The notes below the pieces were generated by a model. The model saw nothing but the letters and a program-made list of their open reading frames with translations, had not been told where the DNA came from and did no database searches. 4,648 bases of DNA, from IMG/VR virus record IMGVR_UViG_2645727715_000001, positions 1-4,648 of that record. One strand, written 5' to 3'. The stretch is from a virus. Lineage: Duplodnaviria; Heunggongvirae; Uroviricota; Caudoviricetes. Both the position numbers and the translations under genes were made by a program. Positions 1-4,648 of this stretch are shown in pieces; position 1 is the first letter of the stretch; every line of letters begins with the position of its first letter.

Positions 1-303
1 CTACTGGATGAACGGGAAAGGAACCAGCAATACATCAAATCCCGCGACCAGGAGAACGAGGATATTGCGCTAACGGTAGGGAAGTTGCGCGTTGAGCTTG
101 AGGCAGAAAAACAGCGGGCAAAGGATCTGTTTATGGAAAATGCTCGGCTTAAGTCAGGTATAGCCGGTCTGATACACCTCGGTATTCGATATGCAGATGT
201 TGATGTCATGAAAATTGCTGGAGATGCCCAGCTTTCTACCCCATGCACTGACAGCATCATAAACAGCATTGCAACAGGCATTCGCATCAACGGAGGTGAG
301 TAG
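1..303 (+). CDS. 5-prime-truncated ORF continuing upstream of the window; hypothetical prophage protein, C-terminal ~100 aa with a charged helical stretch (LRVELEAEKQRAKDLFMENARLKS)
   Basis: Frame 1 is open from base 1 with no stop until TAG 301-303; the tool ORF 85-303 is only its TTG-initiated tail. Same strand and orientation as all downstream genes. Confidence 0.55.
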   Translation, partial: LLDERERNQQYIKSRDQENEDIALTVGKLRVELEAEKQRAKDLFMENARLKSGIAGLIHLGIRYADVDVMKIAGDAQLSTPCTDSIINSIATGIRINGGE

Positions 304-479
304 TGCGTGTGGCATGTATTGGCTTGTTACCGTACCCGACTCGTTTTTGGGCTTCTGCGCTAATTGCAAAGCCACAGGTCCTGATGGCTGACAACATCAC
401 CCCAGCACCAAAGCGCCGCCATACCGGTATTGCAGCGGCACGACGAGCAGCAAAGAGACGCAGGAGAGCAAAGCGATGA
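303..479 (+). CDS. Possible small ORF (58 aa, GTG start) with hydrophobic N-terminus and strongly Arg/Lys-rich C-terminus (AARRAAKRRRRAKR); below the 60-aa cut-off of the ORF track
   Basis: GTG at 303 overlaps the upstream stop (taGTG) and lies 6 nt after GGAGG (292-296); frame 3 is open to TGA 477-479, which overlaps the ATG of the next gene (ATGA). It fills an otherwise unusual 172-nt gap in a coupled operon. Alternative ATG at 384. Confidence 0.3.
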   Translation: MRVACIGLLPYPTRFWASALIAKPQVLMADNITPAPKRRHTGIAAARRAAKRRRRAKR

Positions 480-664
480 AAAACCGTAAAGCAAAGATTC
501 TGTTAGTTCGTAGAAACGCTCCTGGCGTCTGGCAGTGGGTGAGACTCAGCAACCGACGGATGGGGTTAATGAAACATTACGGGATGATGGATTGTTGGTT
601 TTGCAAAAAGCCCAGCGCGGCGCAAAACCGCTGGAAAAACCACTTGCGCACTAAAGGAGAGTGA
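476..664 (+). CDS. Small very basic protein, 62 aa (16 Lys/Arg vs 2 Asp/Glu); possible nucleic-acid-binding protein, function unknown
   Basis: ATG 476 preceded by AGGAG (462-466) at 9-nt spacing; stop TGA 662-664 followed 1 nt later by ATG 666 of the next gene. Confidence 0.55.
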   Translation: MKNRKAKILLVRRNAPGVWQWVRLSNRRMGLMKHYGMMDCWFCKKPSAAQNRWKNHLRTKGE

Positions 665-670
665 TATGGC
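653..670 (+). repeat. 18-bp gene-junction repeat AAAGGAGAGTGATATGGC, copy 1 (stop of ORF 476-664, RBS and start of ORF 666-1181)
   Basis: Exact identity with 1553-1570, read directly from sequence; both upstream proteins end in KGE. Confidence 0.9.
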
Positions 671-1181
671 GTTAACACACCGCGAACTCTGTCAGATTGC
701 GTACAAGTTCCTTAAGCGCAACGGGTTCAAGGTTTGTTTTCATGACCGCTTTATAGCTGTAACCAGTACCGGAGAACAGCCAGATGCTATGGGATTCAGA
801 AATTCAGCATCATGCCTGATAGAGGCGAAATGTTCTCGTGCTGACTTGTTGGCAGATAGAAAAAAGCGTTTTCGTAAAAATCCGTCTCTTGGAATGGGCG
901 ACTGGCGATTCTTTATTAGTGAGCCGGGAATTATTTCAATTGAGGATTTACCACCTGGCTGGGGATTACTTCACGTTGTTAACGGAAGAGTACGGAAAGT
1001 ACATGGGTGGCCCAAGGGTAATTGCTGTTGGGGTAATCCTGACGATAAGCCATTTACTGGAAATAAGCAGGTTGAATGCGATTACATGTTATCTGCATTA
1101 AGGCGTATGGAGTTGAGAGGGCACCTTAATGAAATATATGACGGTGTAATTGTTAATAAGAAAGAAGGAAACGCGGCATGA
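666..1181 (+). CDS. Putative PD-(D/E)xK-fold nuclease-like protein, 171 aa, with Cys/Trp-rich C-terminal region (GNCCWGNPDD...ECDY)
   Basis: ATG 666 with AGGAG 6 nt upstream. N-terminal region shows E7, P39-D40 followed by hydrophobic residues, then hydrophobic-IEAK (E53-x-K55) followed by a basic helix (RADLLADRKKRFRK), the classic spacing of a PD-(D/E)xK core. Stop overlaps next start (ATGA at 1178-1181). Fold assignment is motif-based only. Confidence 0.7.
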   Translation: MALTHRELCQIAYKFLKRNGFKVCFHDRFIAVTSTGEQPDAMGFRNSASCLIEAKCSRADLLADRKKRFRKNPSLGMGDWRFFISEPGIISIEDLPPGWGLLHVVNGRVRKVHGWPKGNCCWGNPDDKPFTGNKQVECDYMLSALRRMELRGHLNEIYDGVIVNKKEGNAA

Positions 1182-1564
1182 TCACTATTACCAAAGAGCG
1201 ACTGCTGACAATCAAGCAGTGGCGCGAAACATACGGACCTGGTAGCAACGTTGTACTGCCAGCAGAAGAAGCGGAAGAACTGGCACGGATTGCGCTGGCA
1301 TCGCTGGAAGCAAAACCAATAGGTGCTTTCCACATTGCAGAACAGCAGGTCGATGGCACAAGTGACTACATCAAGGATGGGGAGTGGCCTATTGATAATG
1401 GAATTATTGAGGTCTACGCCGCTCCACCCGTTCCAGTAGTACCGGAAGAAAAACCAATGCCTAATCCTCTTAGCATGTACGCGGTTGATGCTGTTGCCGC
1501 TATTGCAGAGGTGAGAGGCTGGAACGCCTGCCGCGCTGCAATGCTTCAGGGAAAAGGAGAGTGA
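1178..1564 (+). CDS. Hypothetical phage protein, 128 aa; paralog of the N-terminal half of the downstream 315-aa protein
   Basis: ATG 1178 overlapping upstream stop; GAAGGA 1164-1169 as RBS. Shares MxTITxE start, ELARI(A/V)LASLEA(K/E)P and (V/L)Y(A/T)(A/T)PP(V/A)P motifs with ORF 1772-2719, including a 34/35-nt identical DNA stretch. Confidence 0.75.
   Translation: MITITKERLLTIKQWRETYGPGSNVVLPAEEAEELARIALASLEAKPIGAFHIAEQQVDGTSDYIKDGEWPIDNGIIEVYAAPPVPVVPEEKPMPNPLSMYAVDAVAAIAEVRGWNACRAAMLQGKGE
1277..1311 (+). repeat. 35-bp in-frame repeat, copy 1 (GAACTGGCACGGATTGCGCTGGCATCGCTGGAAGC)
   Basis: 34/35 identity with 1937-1971; encodes ELARIALASLEA. Confidence 0.9.
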
Positions 1565-1570
1565 TATGGC
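1553..1570 (+). repeat. 18-bp gene-junction repeat AAAGGAGAGTGATATGGC, copy 2 (stop of ORF 1178-1564, RBS and start of ORF 1566-1775)
   Basis: Exact identity with 653-670. Confidence 0.9.
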
Positions 1571-1775
1571 TATTGCCGCAAGTTACACAATGCATCTCTA
1601 TTGTGACTGCCGCCAGTGTACGGAAGGTGTATATCCAGTGCCAGACTTCGGTGAGTATATAGGTACGTCATGGGCTGGCTGTGCAAAAGAGGCGCGCAAG
1701 GATGGCTGGCGAATAAAGCAAAGACAAACGCGTGCTTTTGCGCCTGGGCATAAAGTTTTGAGGATTAACAAATGA
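1566..1775 (+). CDS. Small Cys-rich protein, 69 aa (C13-x-C15-x2-C18 ... C39); possible zinc-ribbon-like protein
   Basis: ATG 1566 preceded by the same AAAGGAGAGTGAT junction as gene 666-1181; stop TGA 1773-1775 overlaps ATG 1772 of the next gene. Confidence 0.6.
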   Translation: MAIAASYTMHLYCDCRQCTEGVYPVPDFGEYIGTSWAGCAKEARKDGWRIKQRQTRAFAPGHKVLRINK

Positions 1776-2719
1776 CCACTATTACCAGAGAACAAGCTCT
1801 GAAAATTATTGAGGCAGCCGATGAGGTTATTAGTGCGCTGGCCGGAACTAACGAGGATGTTCACCCTGGTAGCGATAACATGCTACGCCTGTGGGATGAC
1901 CTGAATGACCGTTACGCGCCGCCGGAAATTGTGCGTGAACTGGCACGGATTGTGCTGGCATCGCTGGAAGCCGAGCCTGTTCTGTATCAGTCCTGCACTC
2001 GCCCCACCTGGAATAGCGGTGTTCCGTGGACGGAATGGAAAGAACGAAGTCGTGAGTGCTACGAAGACGATTTGCGCTTTACAGACACGCCTGACCATGC
2101 CGGTTGGATATACAAATGTCGAAAACTATATACCACTCCGCCAGCGCCGATAGCGTTAGAGGCCATTGAAAACGCAATTGAATACATCCGCAGTATCGCT
2201 TTTCACATCGATGAAGACGATTACCACGGCAAACATATTGCGTATTTCATGCAGCAAGCATTGGCCTGGCTGGAAGGGCATTCATGCAGCGACGACAGAC
2301 TGGGTAAAGCCGAGAATCAACCAGTACGCGGCAACCAGGCTGCCGAATCCAATCGCGATAATGAGTGGACTGGCAATCCTGATATTGATAACGCCATCAT
2401 CATGCTCGACCGCATAGATACGCTGGAAAATTGCGATGATGACCGTATTGAGGCTGTTAAGGCTGTTTTGCGTAGACTGGCTGGCAACTATCCGGTAATT
2501 CCGGATGGTTGGATAAGCTGTAGTGAGCGAATGCCTGAGAACATTCCCGGAAGTTGTAAAGAGTATCTGGTGTTTGATGGGCTTAATAATAAAGTTCATC
2601 ACGATTACTGGGTTGTCCCTGATGGAGACAGTGCGCCAGTTGCGTCGTTCTGGAATCATTACGGGGCACATGTAACTCACTGGATGCCTCTACCAGAACC
2701 GCCGCAGGAGGCGAAATGA
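1772..2719 (+). CDS. Phage protein, 315 aa, with C-terminal DUF551-like domain (family recalled from memory) and N-terminal module shared with ORF 1178-1564
   Basis: ATG 1772 with GAGGA 7 nt upstream. C-terminus IPDGWISCSERMPE...KEYLVFDG...HHDYWVV...FWNHYGAHVTHWMPLPEPP matches my recollection of the DUF551 pattern found in enterobacterial prophage proteins. Longest ORF in the window. Confidence 0.85.
   Translation: MTTITREQALKIIEAADEVISALAGTNEDVHPGSDNMLRLWDDLNDRYAPPEIVRELARIVLASLEAEPVLYQSCTRPTWNSGVPWTEWKERSRECYEDDLRFTDTPDHAGWIYKCRKLYTTPPAPIALEAIENAIEYIRSIAFHIDEDDYHGKHIAYFMQQALAWLEGHSCSDDRLGKAENQPVRGNQAAESNRDNEWTGNPDIDNAIIMLDRIDTLENCDDDRIEAVKAVLRRLAGNYPVIPDGWISCSERMPENIPGSCKEYLVFDGLNNKVHHDYWVVPDGDSAPVASFWNHYGAHVTHWMPLPEPPQEAK
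1937..1971 (+). repeat. 35-bp in-frame repeat, copy 2 (GAACTGGCACGGATTGTGCTGGCATCGCTGGAAGC)
   Basis: 34/35 identity with 1277-1311; encodes ELARIVLASLEA. Confidence 0.9.
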
Positions 2720-2976
2720 TGGATGTAAAAGAGAAGGTTTTGCAGGTGATGCGTTCCCGGGCTGCCCTGCAAGATAAAGCTCTCGGCGGGAAATATCCAT
2801 TCAGGATGGCAACCTGGAATCTGCGGTTGGCAATGGAGAAGGAATTTCCTGATGAAGAATGGCGTTCGGCAGATTTGCGCAAAATTCTTATGGAGATGGC
2901 TAAAGATGGAACAGTATCCAAAGATACCCATGCCAGCCGGATTGGTCAGGCGGTATGGAGACTGGAGGTGAGGTAA
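2716..2976 (+). CDS. Hypothetical small phage protein, 86 aa
   Basis: ATG 2716 overlaps upstream stop (ATGA) with strong AGGAGG (2705-2710) at 5-nt spacing; stop TAA 2974-2976. Confidence 0.65.
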   Translation: MMDVKEKVLQVMRSRAALQDKALGGKYPFRMATWNLRLAMEKEFPDEEWRSADLRKILMEMAKDGTVSKDTHASRIGQAVWRLEVR

Positions 2977-3050
2977 TAAGCTGGCCTGAAGCATTTGCGA
3001 TTGTAGGCGTAGCTATGGCGATTGCCGCTATTTTTATCTTCTGGGGGTAA
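2955..3050 (+). CDS. Candidate unannotated mini-ORF, 31 aa, single predicted transmembrane helix (METGGEVISWPEAFAIVGVAMAIAAIFIFWG)
   Basis: Frame 3 ATG 2955 to TAA 3048-3050. It exactly fills the only untranslated gap between 2976 and 3053, and its stop sits 2 nt before the ATG of the next gene. No good SD for ATG 2955; GGAGGTGAG at 2964-2972 is downstream of it. Speculative. Confidence 0.25.
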   Translation: METGGEVISWPEAFAIVGVAMAIAAIFIFWG

Positions 3051-3052
3051 CG

Positions 3053-3268
3053 ATGGGAAAATTAACTTTTGTAGTCGAATTTGAGGATGGCAAAGAGCCA
3101 CCTGTTAGCGCCAATCTTGATGTTGCTGGTGGCAGGCTGGTTTCGGTTCTATTTGGTGATTACCGCGACGACTTCTTTCAGCCTGAAGAAGTTGATGTAG
3201 TGCGAGAAGCATTAAACGAGCTAAGTGTTGATAACGATGATGCTCATGCGGAAATCATCAAAAAATGA
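3053..3268 (+). CDS. Small strongly acidic protein, 71 aa (17 Asp/Glu vs 7 Lys/Arg); candidate DNA-mimic or anti-defence-type protein (hypothesis only)
   Basis: ATG 3053 preceded by GGGGGT; residue composition counted directly from the translation; stop TGA 3266-3268. Confidence 0.65.
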   Translation: MGKLTFVVEFEDGKEPPVSANLDVAGGRLVSVLFGDYRDDFFQPEEVDVVREALNELSVDNDDAHAEIIKK

Positions 3269-3332
3269 ACTGACTACTCACTAAATTATCAATTATGGTG
3301 CTATCACCTACGACACCGAGAGAAAATTTATA

Positions 3333-3455
3333 ATGTCAAAAGTAAATGTTTTGATTTTTTCAGCAATTGTTGGCTTTGGTTTTACTGCCGGAGTGCAGAT
3401 TTATATTACGTGGGAAAAAATCATCAACTACGAATGGAGTTGTTTTATTAAGTGA
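3333..3455 (+). CDS. Candidate small membrane peptide, 40 aa (MSKVNVLIFSAIVGFGFTAGVQIYITWEKIINYEWSCFIK), one hydrophobic helix
   Basis: Frame 3 ATG 3333 to TGA 3453-3455 in the AT-rich segment. Ends 7 nt before ATG 3463, and its 3-prime end contains the GAGGT that would serve as RBS for the next gene. It competes with the TTG-initiated N-terminal extension of tool ORF 3367-3756. Confidence 0.35.
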   Translation: MSKVNVLIFSAIVGFGFTAGVQIYITWEKIINYEWSCFIK

Positions 3456-3462
3456 GGTAAGT

Positions 3463-3756
3463 ATGTGGAGAGGTAATAATCATGGCAAAAGCCAGATGAT
3501 ACTTACCGAATATAAGCTAGACCACAAAACCAATAAATCACGCTCAGTATATTTGCTCCGGCACAATAGCCGCGTAAGAAATACCGTGCTGGAACAAAAT
3601 CTGACAGTTGAAATGGATAATTGCGGGGGATTCAAGCCAACAATTTCGCTTGATGATTTTCCTCGTGGTTTAAGCGAAAGAGAAGCAATGCTGAAATTAG
3701 CAGAATGGCTACAAAGATTAAGCATTGCTATTGAAGATAACTGGTCTGAACCTTAA
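3463..3756 (+). CDS. Hypothetical protein, 97 aa if started at ATG 3463 (tool call 3367-3756 uses an upstream TTG)
   Basis: Frame 1 ORF ending TAA 3754-3756; ATG 3463 has GAGGT (3454-3458) upstream, though at short spacing; alternative in-frame ATG at 3496. Followed by a perfect hairpin-forming palindrome at 3789-3805. Confidence 0.5.
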   Translation: MWRGNNHGKSQMILTEYKLDHKTNKSRSVYLLRHNSRVRNTVLEQNLTVEMDNCGGFKPTISLDDFPRGLSEREAMLKLAEWLQRLSIAIEDNWSEP

Positions 3757-3788
3757 ATTTATATGATGACACTAAAACATTTTCTTGA

Positions 3789-3805
3789 CCGCCCATTATG
3801 GGCGG
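3789..3805. repeat. Perfect 17-bp palindrome CCGCCCA-TTA-TGGGCGG (7-bp GC-rich stem, 3-nt loop); possible RNA hairpin or dimeric-protein binding site
   Basis: Read directly; located 33 nt downstream of stop 3756; a TTGACC hexamer (3785-3790) abuts it. No U-tract follows on either strand. Confidence 0.6.
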
Positions 3806-3990
3806 CAGCCGCAGGCTATGACTTTAATTATATGGATTGCATGTCTTGTACTGCCAATGCATACGACCATTCGTTCATCCTGCTGTTTAATTCTTTAAGA
3901 ATATTGCCGGAAACAGTATTTCTTAGGTGATGGAATGACTGATATTGCCAAAATGAACATTGAAGAATGGACTAAGGAATGTGAAAAGAA

Positions 3991-4146
3991 ATGGCGCAAA
4001 AAGAAATGACCAGAATCACTGAAGAGCGCATATCAGAGATTATTTCCCGTATCGAAATGTATGGTCACGGTGCTGGATATACGGCAGATGAAGTATTGGA
4101 AATAGCCCAGCAGATGCTGGCCTTGAGACAAAAAAGAGCAACATGA
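3991..4146 (+). CDS. Possible short ORF, 51 aa (MAQKEMTRITEERISEIISRIEMYGHGAGYTADEVLEIAQQMLALRQKRAT); may be a fragment of a disrupted gene
   Basis: Frame 1 ATG 3991 to TGA 4144-4146. It is overlapped by a 24-codon ORF (3935-4009, frame 2, good AGGTGA RBS) and followed by a frame 2 ORF, so the region looks frame-broken. Confidence 0.3.
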   Translation: MAQKEMTRITEERISEIISRIEMYGHGAGYTADEVLEIAQQMLALRQKRAT

Positions 4147-4162
4147 AAGCAATACGTGTAGA

Positions 4163-4552
4163 TTGAATTTTGAGCAGTGGCTGGAACAGCAACGCGGGAA
4201 AATCGATGTGGACTGTGGTTGTGTGTCCACTGAAACATTCATGCACTGGCTGCGGGTAGCTTACGAGGCTGGCAACTATCCGGATATTCCGGATAGTTCG
4301 GCGCAAGCACCAGGGAAGGGGGGGCTTCCCCGGAGAGCGGATTCGAATTAAGCCGCATGTTTACCGTGAACTGGTTAACCGCCTCCACGATACAGCGATC
4401 AAGTGTGCTGGCACCCAGCAATTACGGGAAAGAATTAGCCGCGTTTTTGGCGAAGTTATTACACCAGATCGTCATAAACAAGCCGAGAAAAGCGGTCTGG
4501 AAAGGAGTCATCTTGAAGCGGCATTAAACATTAAACCGGGCAGTACGCTAGT
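4163..4552 (+). pseudogene. Frame-disrupted or mis-sequenced gene: frame 2 ORF (4163-4351, TTG start) continues without any start codon in frame 3 from 4260 to the end of reliable sequence
   Basis: Frame 3 is open from 4260 onward but has no ATG/GTG/TTG; the frame 2 to frame 3 switch coincides with a G7 run (4318-4324). Deleting one G would join the two into one ORF (...APGKGGFPGERIRIKPHVYRELVNRLHDTAIKC...). Confidence 0.35.
4276..4296. repeat. 21-bp inverted repeat CTATCCGGA-TAT-TCCGGATAG (9-bp arms); also a direct repeat of TCCGGATA
   Basis: Read directly; lies inside ORF 4163-4351, encoding YPDIPDS. Confidence 0.5.
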
Positions 4553-4648
4553 GGGGAAAAATTTTTCCCCGGGAAAAAAATTTTTGGGGTTTTTAAAAAA
4601 ACCCCAAAAAAAGGGGCCCCCTTTTAAAAAACCCCGGGTTTTAAAAAA
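4553..4648. other. Low-complexity homopolymer-stutter tract (GGGG AAAAA TTTTT CCCC GGG AAAAAAA ...), most likely sequencing or assembly artefact at a contig/read end rather than genomic sequence
   Basis: Every base occurs in runs of 3-7, cycling through all four nucleotides for about 96 bp to the end of the window; nothing like this occurs in the preceding 4.5 kb. Confidence 0.7.

Follow-up and report, generated by a model that had tools for sequence, protein, structure and literature searches.

The low-GC segment at positions 3270-3990 of the window (the whole 4,648-nt stretch of DNA analysed here) probably carries three small accessory genes, each shuffled on its own, within a long rightward operon, rather than a self-contained two-gene module. 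In this arrangement, gene 1 (3333-3455) encodes a predicted 40-aa single-pass inner-membrane protein and gene 2 (3463-3756) a putatively cytoplasmic 97-aa protein of the N15 gp44/lambdoid nin-region family; gene 3 (3763 onward), formerly encoding a 124-aa membrane protein, has been inactivated here by a 128-bp microhomology deletion. The main value of this finding lies in annotation and in candidate lists: a genuine 40-codon membrane-protein gene, called in three phage genomes, is missing from all ten annotations of complete P1-like plasmids examined, elements that often carry resistance genes; and the 97-aa family, widespread in enterobacterial temperate phages, has a confidently predicted fold without a structural relative. 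Further, three false leads were removed: the toxin-antitoxin-like pairing, the hairpin as a terminator and the additional hydrophobic mini-ORF.

Genomic setting and composition

GC content falls from 0.491 at positions 1-3200 to 0.374 at 3270-3990, in agreement with the compositional drop noticed in the initial annotation, which had been made from the sequence letters alone; the same segment is the lowest-GC 720-nt stretch of a 10.8-kb relative, L001 (0.375, approximately 3.5 sd under a mean of 0.477, with sd 0.029). The window displays 99.5% identity to J6 p1, an Escherichia coli P1-like plasmid of ~95 kb, and sits upstream of hot, humD, phd/doc and pacA on the P1-like plasmid. It is part of the low-GC hypervariable region 8 (pmgT-humD) of P1-like phage-plasmids, which has been published as variable and low in GC (PMC9603915). 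Neighbouring genes are of the Ea22-like, Eaa/DUF551 and DUF4752 types, and gene ends abut or overlap throughout. The proposal that this region represents low-GC accessory cargo was supported; that of a single inserted segment was not borne out, as several gene modules were found, each of them exchanged independently.

Upstream of the peptide gene, a 77-aa gene has its true stop at about 3282-3284 in relatives, and it is followed by a non-coding spacer (3285-3332, + strand). Variable positions account for 20 of 49 alignment columns of the spacer among 11 relatives, exceeding the variability of the flanking genes, and the spacer accommodates a 1-nt indel. It contains GAGAGA (3318-3323), a weak ribosome-binding site rich in purines, and AGGA occupies the equivalent position in the divergent allele p13ZX36.

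A 40-codon membrane-protein gene family

The 40-aa ORF (3333-3455, + strand; MSKVNVLIFSAIVGFGFTAGVQIYITWEKIINYEWSCFIK) was present as initially described, and the single helix attributed to it was recovered as one predicted transmembrane segment, with a Kyte-Doolittle 19-residue maximum of 1.83 (usual transmembrane cut-off, 1.6). Its product matched the phrog_5525 profile over the entire length (E 1.2e-23; residues 1-40 aligned to the 40 profile positions) and corresponds to SJ46 gp090 (YP_009293547.1), which is 95% identical and likewise lies directly before the 97-aa gene; the allele in the window carries a rare A34E change. The peptide had been described as unannotated, which holds for plasmid records, where PGAP skips it (0/10 complete P1-like plasmid records examined), whereas it is annotated in SJ46 (gp090), EC.W1-9 and phiv142-3. 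Approximately 225 PLSDB plasmids carry the 40-aa ORF, with a full-length tblastn match (at least 80% of the query) in 224/225, and the frame was open in all 83 IMG/VR and genome loci. Two plasmids harbor an in-frame 9-nt insertion, and alleles with stop loss (47 aa), start loss or N-terminal truncation also occur.

Coding constraint was assessed in two clades of the peptide. In the P1-like clade (clade 1), dN/dS was 0.60, with 0.53 for an alternative frame; variable sites were distributed 12/7/10 by codon position, the absence of stops was not significant (P = 0.16), and the coding-constraint test on this clade alone is underpowered and ambiguous. The coding status of the peptide was settled only by a second clade (clade 2), of ~45-56% identity, in which the 40 codons are kept and dN/dS is 0.08-0.16 in frame, with values of about 0.6 to 16 for the alternative frames. 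Between the clades, the second codon position is the best kept (21/27/18 of 40 by position). Conservation of the 40-aa frame, which had been put forward as a check, was thus strong in clade 2 and weak in the P1-like clade. The clade 2 members, including Orf32 of the Uetakevirus phiv142-3, resemble the peptide of the window in their layout of a transmembrane segment plus an amphipathic tail and share with it the motif GFG..AG..YI[TA]WE..IN..W; their neighbours are different, namely an upstream Eaa/DUF551 gene, which overlaps the peptide gene by ATGA, and a downstream gene of phrog_536. Judging from these sequence comparisons, the 40-aa ORF is a member of a genuine gene family, phrog_5525, in support of the notion of a real, under-annotated family of protein-coding genes.

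The 97-aa gene and its relatives

The second ORF (3463-3756, + strand), also present as first described, encodes a predicted soluble protein of 97 aa that belongs to phrog_1258, together with N15 gp44, phiKO2 gp43 and mEp235 gp51 (E 1.4e-49, 1-97 of 97). Its dN/dS is 0.14, and homologues were identified in 42 phage records and in about 130 protein clusters (48 clusters at 50% identity). Contrary to its initial description, this gene is not unannotated, as it appears as a hypothetical protein in the annotation of every relative, and this ORF contradicts the statement that a 60-aa threshold would miss everything in the segment. N15 gp44 and phiKO2 Gp43 are homologous to the 97-aa protein over the whole length and have the same size (55-69% identity, a range that by tblastn also includes Mulock); the nin-region members mEp235 gp51 and SPN9CC_0035, whose gene sits between ninF and an HNH endonuclease, display 43% identity over the whole length. 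The phrog_1258 members and the protein of the window share a conserved motif, DFP...E(R/K)EA.LKLA.W..R, in the C-terminal helix, one face of which is invariant (E74, K78, W82, R85). These relatives are encoded in the lambdoid nin region or in the N15 early-right operon, while the gene of the window lies behind a membrane peptide in a P1-like phage-plasmid.

The AlphaFold2 model of the 97-aa protein (mean pLDDT 87.4) shows four antiparallel strands and then a long helix at the C terminus, and the search for structural relatives that the initial annotation had proposed returned no meaningful fold or sequence match among solved structures. Matches to giant proteins (P0140, P0141, P0144) correspond to Ig-like 'NITVQLDAxGNATIT' surface-protein repeats and were judged uninformative, since the likeness is confined to a short strand motif. 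An alternative start at TTG 3367, which yields a 129-aa version called by some pipelines, was rejected: the 32-codon extension has a dN/dS of 1.12, a stop occurs within the extension in a relative, and homologues of 50-70% identity keep the residues after ATG 3463.

Junction and separability of the two genes

The overlap between the peptide gene and the ribosome-binding site of the 97-aa gene, noted at the outset, was confirmed by direct reading of the junction (3453-3465, + strand; AAGTGAGGTAAGTATG): the TGA of the peptide (3453-3455) overlaps the GAGG Shine-Dalgarno sequence of the 97-aa gene (3454-3457), which lies 5 nt ahead of ATG 3463. The adjacency of both genes, with a fixed 7-nt spacing, was found in 65/65 measurable clade 1 loci, and the layout points to translational coupling of the two genes. 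This fixed adjacency within P1-like elements, together with the overlap of stop and Shine-Dalgarno sequence, would also suit a functional pair, and the linkage could exceed that due to shared descent.

Each of the two genes also occurs without the other in other phages, against the initial proposal of a dedicated module formed by a membrane peptide and a small protein. In RCS47 and MH422554, an ASCH gene replaces the 31-aa ORF, the 77-aa gene and the peptide of the window (block ~2977-3462), and homology to the window picks up again precisely at the start codon (ATG) of the 97-aa gene. Furthermore, N15, phiKO2, mEp235 and SPN9CC carry the 97-aa homologue with no room for the peptide, for which tblastn gave a match in no more than 3 of the 42 phage records with the 97-aa gene. 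Conversely, the gene directly downstream of the peptide in clade 2 loci is a phrog_536 regulator-like gene in 16/17 and the 97-aa gene in 0/17, and a Klebsiella grimontii peptide locus has neither of them. The separate occurrence of the two genes thus indicates mosaic accessory cargo instead of a dedicated toxin-antitoxin-like pair. The possibility that the 97-aa gene forms a conserved pair with the 124-aa gene was considered as well and rejected, as neither N15 gp45 nor phiKO2 Gp44 is related to the 124-aa protein, and the divergent homologues of the latter lie behind other, unrelated genes of 79-80 aa.

A third gene interrupted by a deletion

Two further elements, a perfect hairpin and a hydrophobic ORF of 26 codons, had been listed as separate features; both fall within the gene of a 124-aa membrane protein that starts at 3763. 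By alignment to intact relatives, positions 3763-3930 (+ strand) correspond to the 5' part of this gene, a member of phrog_2638 (E 1.5e-62 for an intact relative), with a dN/dS of 0.25 in the N-terminal part. When compared with the intact gene of pEC13-3, SJ46 and eight other relatives, the window shows a 128-bp deletion that shifts the frame, after which 55 aa remain (residues 1-51 plus VFLR); the missing stretch codes for the hydrophobic core (Kyte-Doolittle 2.6), so that the intact phrog_2638 frame with its core is absent from the window. The 124-aa gene is thus inactivated here by a frameshifting deletion. At the junction (3907-3916, + strand), the missing 128 bp had been flanked by imperfect direct repeats, CCGGAAACAG and CCGGAAAAAG; the loss, as read from these repeats, is a microhomology deletion. 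What remains of the 3' end, orphaned at 3935-4009 (+ strand; MTDIAKMNIEEWTKECEKKWRKKK when read in the original frame), runs into the following gene, which starts at ATG 3991. The deletion allele is common to four complete plasmids (J6 p1, TUM13773, TUM9975 and KD0845) and rare overall, with about 4/271 E. coli records and 1/65 IMG/VR loci.

The hairpin CCGCCCA-TTA-TGGGCGG (3789-3805, + strand), with 7 bp and a high GC content, was confirmed (dG -16.7 kcal/mol, z -2.7). It lies 27 nt inside the 124-aa coding frame and encodes part of an invariant D-x-P-x-W-A-A-A; the sequence that follows, CAGCCGCAGG, has no T-tract, and the gene remains intact for ~200 nt past the hairpin in >98% of relatives. 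In homologues of 50-57% identity (L021, L023), at least 2 of the 7 pairs are broken and uncompensated while the amino acids are kept. A function as intrinsic terminator was rejected on account of the missing T-tract and the lack of structural conservation in divergent homologues; from this pattern of retained residues and broken pairs, the hairpin is a by-product of coding. The 26-codon ORF (3818-3898, + strand) does exist as a frame, although its Kyte-Doolittle value of 1.55 falls under the 1.6 cut-off, and it was rejected as a gene: it is out of frame within the 124-aa gene (+1, offset 1 from ATG 3763), and in divergent homologues, in which the 124-aa frame is conserved, it has an unrelated translation without stop.

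The structure model of the 124-aa protein (pLDDT 57, all-helical) is not interpretable. Its hydrophobic region (residues 57-114), exactly the one removed by the deletion in the window, bears a weak local likeness to CptA/YgfX (PF07254); this assignment was rejected (13.6 bits versus a gathering threshold of 27.3, E 0.075), and the match is most likely compositional.

Transcription signals and comparison with known systems

Promoters and terminators were sought by consensus-only scans, which would miss phage-specific promoters such as Lpa-dependent late ones. Within this scope, no sigma-70-like site was detected on the + strand at 2900-4200, and no terminator-like site on the + strand at 3032-4200. 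The promoter-like sites of the region were fewer than in shuffled controls (2 versus 3.3), and one minus-strand site lies at 3488-3460 (9/12 matches). The first strong + strand terminator-like hairpin in a relative follows the next gene (L001 6452-6481). No Rfam family was found in the segment at E up to 1, and no relevant riboregulator or antitoxin RNA.

In Pfam, NCBIfam and PADLOC, none of the three genes matched a family of toxins, antitoxins or defence proteins; for the peptide and the 97-aa protein, these searches (E up to 1) returned a single, non-significant match to CydH, and the PHROG functional categories were equally devoid of superinfection-exclusion or Kil-type homology of the peptide. 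Of the features of type II toxin-antitoxin systems, neither conserved co-occurrence of the pair across elements nor similarity of either product to a known toxin or antitoxin family was observed. The peptide resembles type I toxins (Hok/Gef, Ldr, Ibs, TisB-type) and small phage effectors in having <50 aa, one hydrophobic helix and a location on a mobile element, and it falls within the size (<60 aa) and hydrophobicity expected of type I toxins; however, it shows no sequence similarity to any family of such toxins or of exclusion or Kil-like peptides, and, unlike the stand-alone repressed type I loci, it forms part of a probable polycistronic operon and precedes a putatively coupled gene. The segment further resembles lambdoid moron and ea/nin-type accessory genes, which are likewise small and low in GC, undergo boundary exchange and vary in presence between conserved flanks; in the segment, presence/absence between the same flanks is accompanied by a deviant GC content (0.33-0.40 versus 0.49). 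A moron in the strict sense is an autonomous transcription unit, a definition the segment fails, since the consensus-only scan revealed neither a promoter nor a terminator belonging to it. Searches of the literature, including the supplements of an accessory-gene screen, returned no mention of these accessions, PHROG ids or peptides.

Functional model and alternative explanations

Under the arrangement of three independently shuffling genes, transcription would enter from the upstream ea/DUF551 block and end at the strong terminator-like hairpin located after the next gene, and ribosomes finishing the peptide would help to start translation of the 97-aa protein. The peptide would insert into the inner membrane and may act on a host envelope or membrane target, while the 97-aa protein may serve as a separate cytoplasmic small protein-binding modulator; roles in host takeover, exclusion or counter-defence are guesses. 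Both families are reasonable candidates for functional screens of phage accessory genes.

It is unlikely that the P1-like 40-codon frame is a decaying remnant, or an upstream frame that only loads ribosomes, with the 97-aa protein as the sole product that matters. Such an origin would agree with the clade 1 dN/dS, no better than that of the alternative frame, with the 12/7/10 spread of its variable sites by codon position and the non-significant lack of stops, with the weak GAGAGA site and the failure of PGAP ever to call the gene, and with the stop-loss, start-loss and truncated alleles. Nevertheless, about 290 copies retain both the frame and its length, among them those with the in-frame 9-nt insertion; substitutions are mostly conservative within the helix (A/V, T/S, I/V); the invariant GFG...AG...W..IN..W is common to clade 2, on which purifying selection acts strongly; and the p13ZX36 allele retains an AGGA ribosome-binding site. 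A classical autonomous moron, with its own promoter before the peptide, the hairpin at 3789-3805 as terminator and expression from the plasmid-prophage, would account for the distinct low GC content, for presence/absence between the same flanks in related elements and for a stable hairpin soon after the 97-aa stop; this explanation is highly improbable given that the consensus-only scan found no + strand sigma-70-like site at 2900-4200, and that no T-tract follows the hairpin, which falls within a conserved coding frame continuing intact well beyond it in nearly all relatives and is itself not conserved in divergent homologues.

A dedicated functional unit, for instance a membrane toxin or exclusion peptide controlled by its partner or anchoring it, would fit the strict adjacency and fixed spacing in all P1-like loci examined, the overlap of the peptide stop with the Shine-Dalgarno sequence, and the recurrence of this layout in clade 2, where the peptide is likewise overlapped by a downstream gene of ~115 aa. 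We regard it as quite improbable, since the partner varies by clade (phrog_1258 versus phrog_536) and is missing in K. grimontii, most occurrences of the 97-aa family lack the peptide, searches for toxin, antitoxin or defence relatives were negative, and neither a dedicated promoter, an operator-like repeat, a terminator nor an Rfam antisense RNA was found. There is also a slim chance that the peptide is a portable host-membrane effector, placed as first cistron before differing small cytoplasmic proteins and setting their expression through its own translation. It could then inhibit or modulate an inner-membrane complex in the service of superinfection exclusion or host takeover, its partner being phrog_1258 in P1-like elements and the phrog_536 regulator in Uetakevirus-like phages; if so, the layout would constitute a reusable cassette of a membrane peptide plus a coupled partner, and not a chance adjacency.

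Genomic setting and base composition

The window aligns with P1-like phage-plasmids of the SJ46/RCS47 group, which are E. coli plasmids of ~95 kb; J6 p1 is its best match (99.5% identity), and 314 of the 332 places matching it are plasmid-borne. The composition drop described at 3270-3990 was borne out, with a GC of 0.374 versus 0.491 at 1-3200, and in the 10.8-kb relative (a stretch of J6 p1) the same segment is the lowest-GC 720-nt stretch (0.375; mean 0.477, sd 0.029). By feature, GC was 0.33 in the spacer, 0.325 in the peptide gene, 0.398 in the 97-aa gene and 0.385 in the third-gene remnant, and 0.43-0.56 in the upstream genes. Ea22-like, DUF4752 and DUF551/Eaa genes lie upstream of the segment in J6 p1, and hot (pol III theta), humD, phd/doc, a DUF968 gene and a terminase gene lie downstream. 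The pmgT-humD interval is one of eight hypervariable regions in compared P1-like phage-plasmids, regions that have been tied to low G+C (PMC9603915). Taken together, the segment is ordinary accessory cargo, and its reading as separate mosaic genes within an operon, with a spurious hairpin and third ORF, is well supported. The features reported by the initial annotation (ORFs of 40 aa, 97 aa and 26 codons, and a hairpin) all exist, its observations being confirmed in part and their interpretation upheld in part, as detailed for each gene.

A further mosaic difference in the same region was observed between window positions 1313-2490 and positions 3633-4291 of the J6 p1 stretch; the 315-aa DUF551-type ORF of the window (1772-2719) is intact, and its J6 p1 counterpart is shorter, different, and annotated as partial/pseudogene DUF551 pieces.

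The 40-aa ORF belongs to a small membrane-protein family

The 40-aa ORF (3333-3455, + strand) matches phrog_5525 from end to end (E 1.2e-23). It had been described as unannotated, which holds for PGAP, as no call was made in any plasmid record inspected, but not for SJ46 (gp090), EC.W1-9 and phiv142-3, where it is annotated. By tblastn, the peptide was matched full length (≥80% of the query) in 224/225 plasmids at 75-100% identity; its frame is open in all 83 IMG/VR and genome loci, and a 9-nt insertion seen in two plasmids is in frame.

Conservation of this frame, proposed as a check, was clear in one clade and weak in the other. Among P1-like elements, codon evidence is weak: dN/dS was 0.60 versus 0.53 for an alternative frame, variable sites were distributed 12/7/10 by codon position, and the zero stops among ~30 substitutions were not significant (P = 0.16). 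The decisive evidence that the peptide is a gene came from a second clade, present in Uetakevirus-like phages of E. coli as well as in genomes of Klebsiella grimontii and Pseudescherichia vulneris. Its copies are ~45-56% identical, have 49% GC and a length of exactly 40 codons; among its members (~80% nucleotide identity), dN/dS was 0.08-0.16 in the peptide frame versus about 0.6 to 16 in the other two. Between clades, conservation is highest at the second codon position (21/27/18 of 40), stops are present in the other frames, and the motif GFG..AG..(Y)I.W..IN..W is common to both. One hydrophobic helix is predicted (Kyte-Doolittle 1.83-1.97), in agreement with the single helix first proposed. 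The constraint in the second clade, the codon-position pattern, the shared motif and the predicted helix together establish a real small membrane-protein family, under-annotated and of modest interest; that strong selection still acts on the P1-like copies is less certain.

Unusual alleles were also observed: a stop-loss (TGA to TGG) in two IMG/VR loci (L082, L083) and in protein P0005 yields a 47-aa peptide (…CFIKWGKYVER) that runs on past the 97-aa gene's Shine-Dalgarno and start codon, the L051 allele has Leu instead of Met as first codon, and the match in L086 begins only at residue 7.

The 97-aa protein

The 97-aa gene (3463-3756, + strand) matches phrog_1258 (E 1.4e-49) and shows a dN/dS of 0.14. 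Initiation at TTG 3367, giving the 129-aa product called by some pipelines, was rejected: the extension has a dN/dS of 1.12 and an internal stop in one relative, and W2-R3-G4 following ATG 3463 is kept in homologues at 50-70% identity. Homologues include N15 gp44, phiKO2 Gp43, and proteins of Klebsiella phage Mulock, HK225 and Proteus phages; in mEp235 and P22-like Salmonella phages, the gene sits between ninF and an HNH endonuclease. An exhaustive search gave only 48 clusters at 50% identity. W82 and R85 are invariant, and E74 and K78, among others, nearly so. The AlphaFold2 model is confident (mean pLDDT 87.4), with strands predicted at residues 10-20, 25-36, 41-51 and 57-62 and a helix at 72-95; on this model, the family appears to be an orphan fold of modest interest.

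Multi-stretch matches (E 2e-10 to 6e-4) were also obtained to seven giant surface proteins (P0140, P0141, P0144, P0157-P0160) with tandem Ig-like repeats ('NITVQLDAxGNATITPExIDNGSSDACG'); these probably reflect short strand-motif similarity added up over repeats rather than homology.

A third gene disrupted by a deletion

In an alignment with ten relatives (pEC13-3, SJ46 and eight others), position 3763 onward (+ strand) proved to be the start of a 124-aa membrane-protein gene (WP_033553822-type; phrog_2638, E 1.5e-62). In the window and in J6 p1, a 128-bp deletion flanked by the imperfect repeats CCGGAAACAG and CCGGAAAAAG (junction 3907-3916) takes out its hydrophobic core (Kyte-Doolittle 2.6) and frameshifts the gene to a 55-aa product. 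This allele is rare, being found in about 4/271 complete E. coli records and 1/65 IMG/VR loci.

The hairpin and third ORF had been misread. The perfect hairpin at 3789-3805 is present; it lies 27 nt into the 124-aa gene, codes for part of the invariant D-x-P-x-W-A-A-A motif, and is followed by no T-tract. In homologues at 50-57% identity, at least 2 of its 7 pairs are broken without compensation and the amino acids are kept; the hairpin thus arises as a coding by-product. The ORF of 26 codons (3818-3898), described as hydrophobic, is a shadow ORF in the +1 frame of the 124-aa gene: this frame gives unrelated sequence without the stop in divergent homologues, and its hydropathy (1.55) is under the usual cut-off.

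Gene order, expression and possible function

The peptide and the 97-aa gene had been proposed as a dedicated module. They are adjacent, with fixed spacing, in all 65 P1-like loci where both are measurable, which may simply reflect shared descent because this clade is closely related. Outside P1-like elements, the two genes part company: the peptide was matched in only 3 of 42 phage records carrying the 97-aa gene (tblastn, E up to 10), and N15, phiKO2, mEp235 and SPN9CC have the 97-aa homologue without room for the peptide. In the second clade, the peptide gene overlaps the preceding Eaa/DUF551-type gene (ATGA), and 16 of 17 loci have it preceding a Cys-rich ~115-aa phrog_536 'transcriptional regulator', with the 97-aa gene directly following in none; K. 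grimontii has the peptide without either partner. In RCS47 and MH422554, an ASCH-domain gene (L004 896-1200 in RCS47) replaces window block ~2977-3462, namely the 31-aa ORF, the 77-aa gene and the peptide, with junctions exactly at the 86-aa gene stop and the 97-aa gene ATG. The upstream neighbours of the 124-aa gene also differ in divergent homologues. Such exchange at gene boundaries is the mosaicism that typifies the accessory regions of temperate phages.

Four Uetakevirus-like loci (L006, L015, L016 and L106, about 1607-1954) have the GTG start of the phrog_536 gene overlapping the peptide stop; their phrog_536 protein has a C-terminal CGKCG…CPC motif, and its gene lies just ahead of the small terminase gene.

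Gene ends abut or overlap all along the region, and the peptide TGA shares bases with the 97-aa gene's GAGG Shine-Dalgarno, as initially described. No sigma-70-like or terminator-like site was found on the + strand at 3032-4200, and the Rfam scan of the segment detected no RNA element; in the J6 p1 stretch, the earliest strong terminator-like hairpin of the + strand comes after the next gene (L001 6452-6481), and humD has a good promoter-like site ahead of it. The segment would be transcribed by read-through, with putative translational coupling of the peptide and 97-aa genes and expression alongside neighbouring ea/nin-type accessory genes. A literature search on the three families returned no paper naming them and no described function. 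Our joint reading, held with low confidence, is that the peptide might be an inner-membrane effector acting on a target in the host envelope or membrane, and the 97-aa protein an independent cytoplasmic protein-binding modulator.

A minus-strand promoter-like site (3488-3460, TTGCCA-17-CATACT, 9/12), antisense into the peptide gene, is probably due to chance, since sites of this kind are more frequent in shuffled controls than in the region.

Suspected read errors, a probable contig-end artefact and a neighbouring mini-ORF

Homopolymer lengths differ from all relatives at ~3262-3284, where A6 versus A7 and small changes nearby make the upstream gene stop at 3268 (71 aa, not 77), and at ~4125-4135, where A6 versus A5 leaves a 51-aa ORF (3991-4146) in place of the 207 aa encoded by the downstream gene. 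The 8 gap openings against only 2 mismatches over 2,065 nt of J6 p1 suggest read errors, not real pseudogenes. Identity to J6 p1 ends at 4551; the last ~97 bases (4552-4648) consist of runs of 4-7 identical bases (GGGGAAAAATTTTTCCCCGGG...) with no match in relatives, and have the look of an artefact of sequencing or assembly at the contig end.

Another hydrophobic mini-ORF (2955-3050, + strand; 31 aa, METGGEVISWPEAFAIVGVAMAIAAIFIFWG, Kyte-Doolittle 2.41) is flanked by the 86-aa Eaa-type and 77-aa genes, belongs to no PHROG family and carries no annotation in the records inspected. In most relatives it has 27 aa, M[STN]WPEAF[AT]TVGI[VA]MA[AV]AL[GV]LYSICRW[WG], among them E. albertii p2RM9973, where the upstream gene is different.
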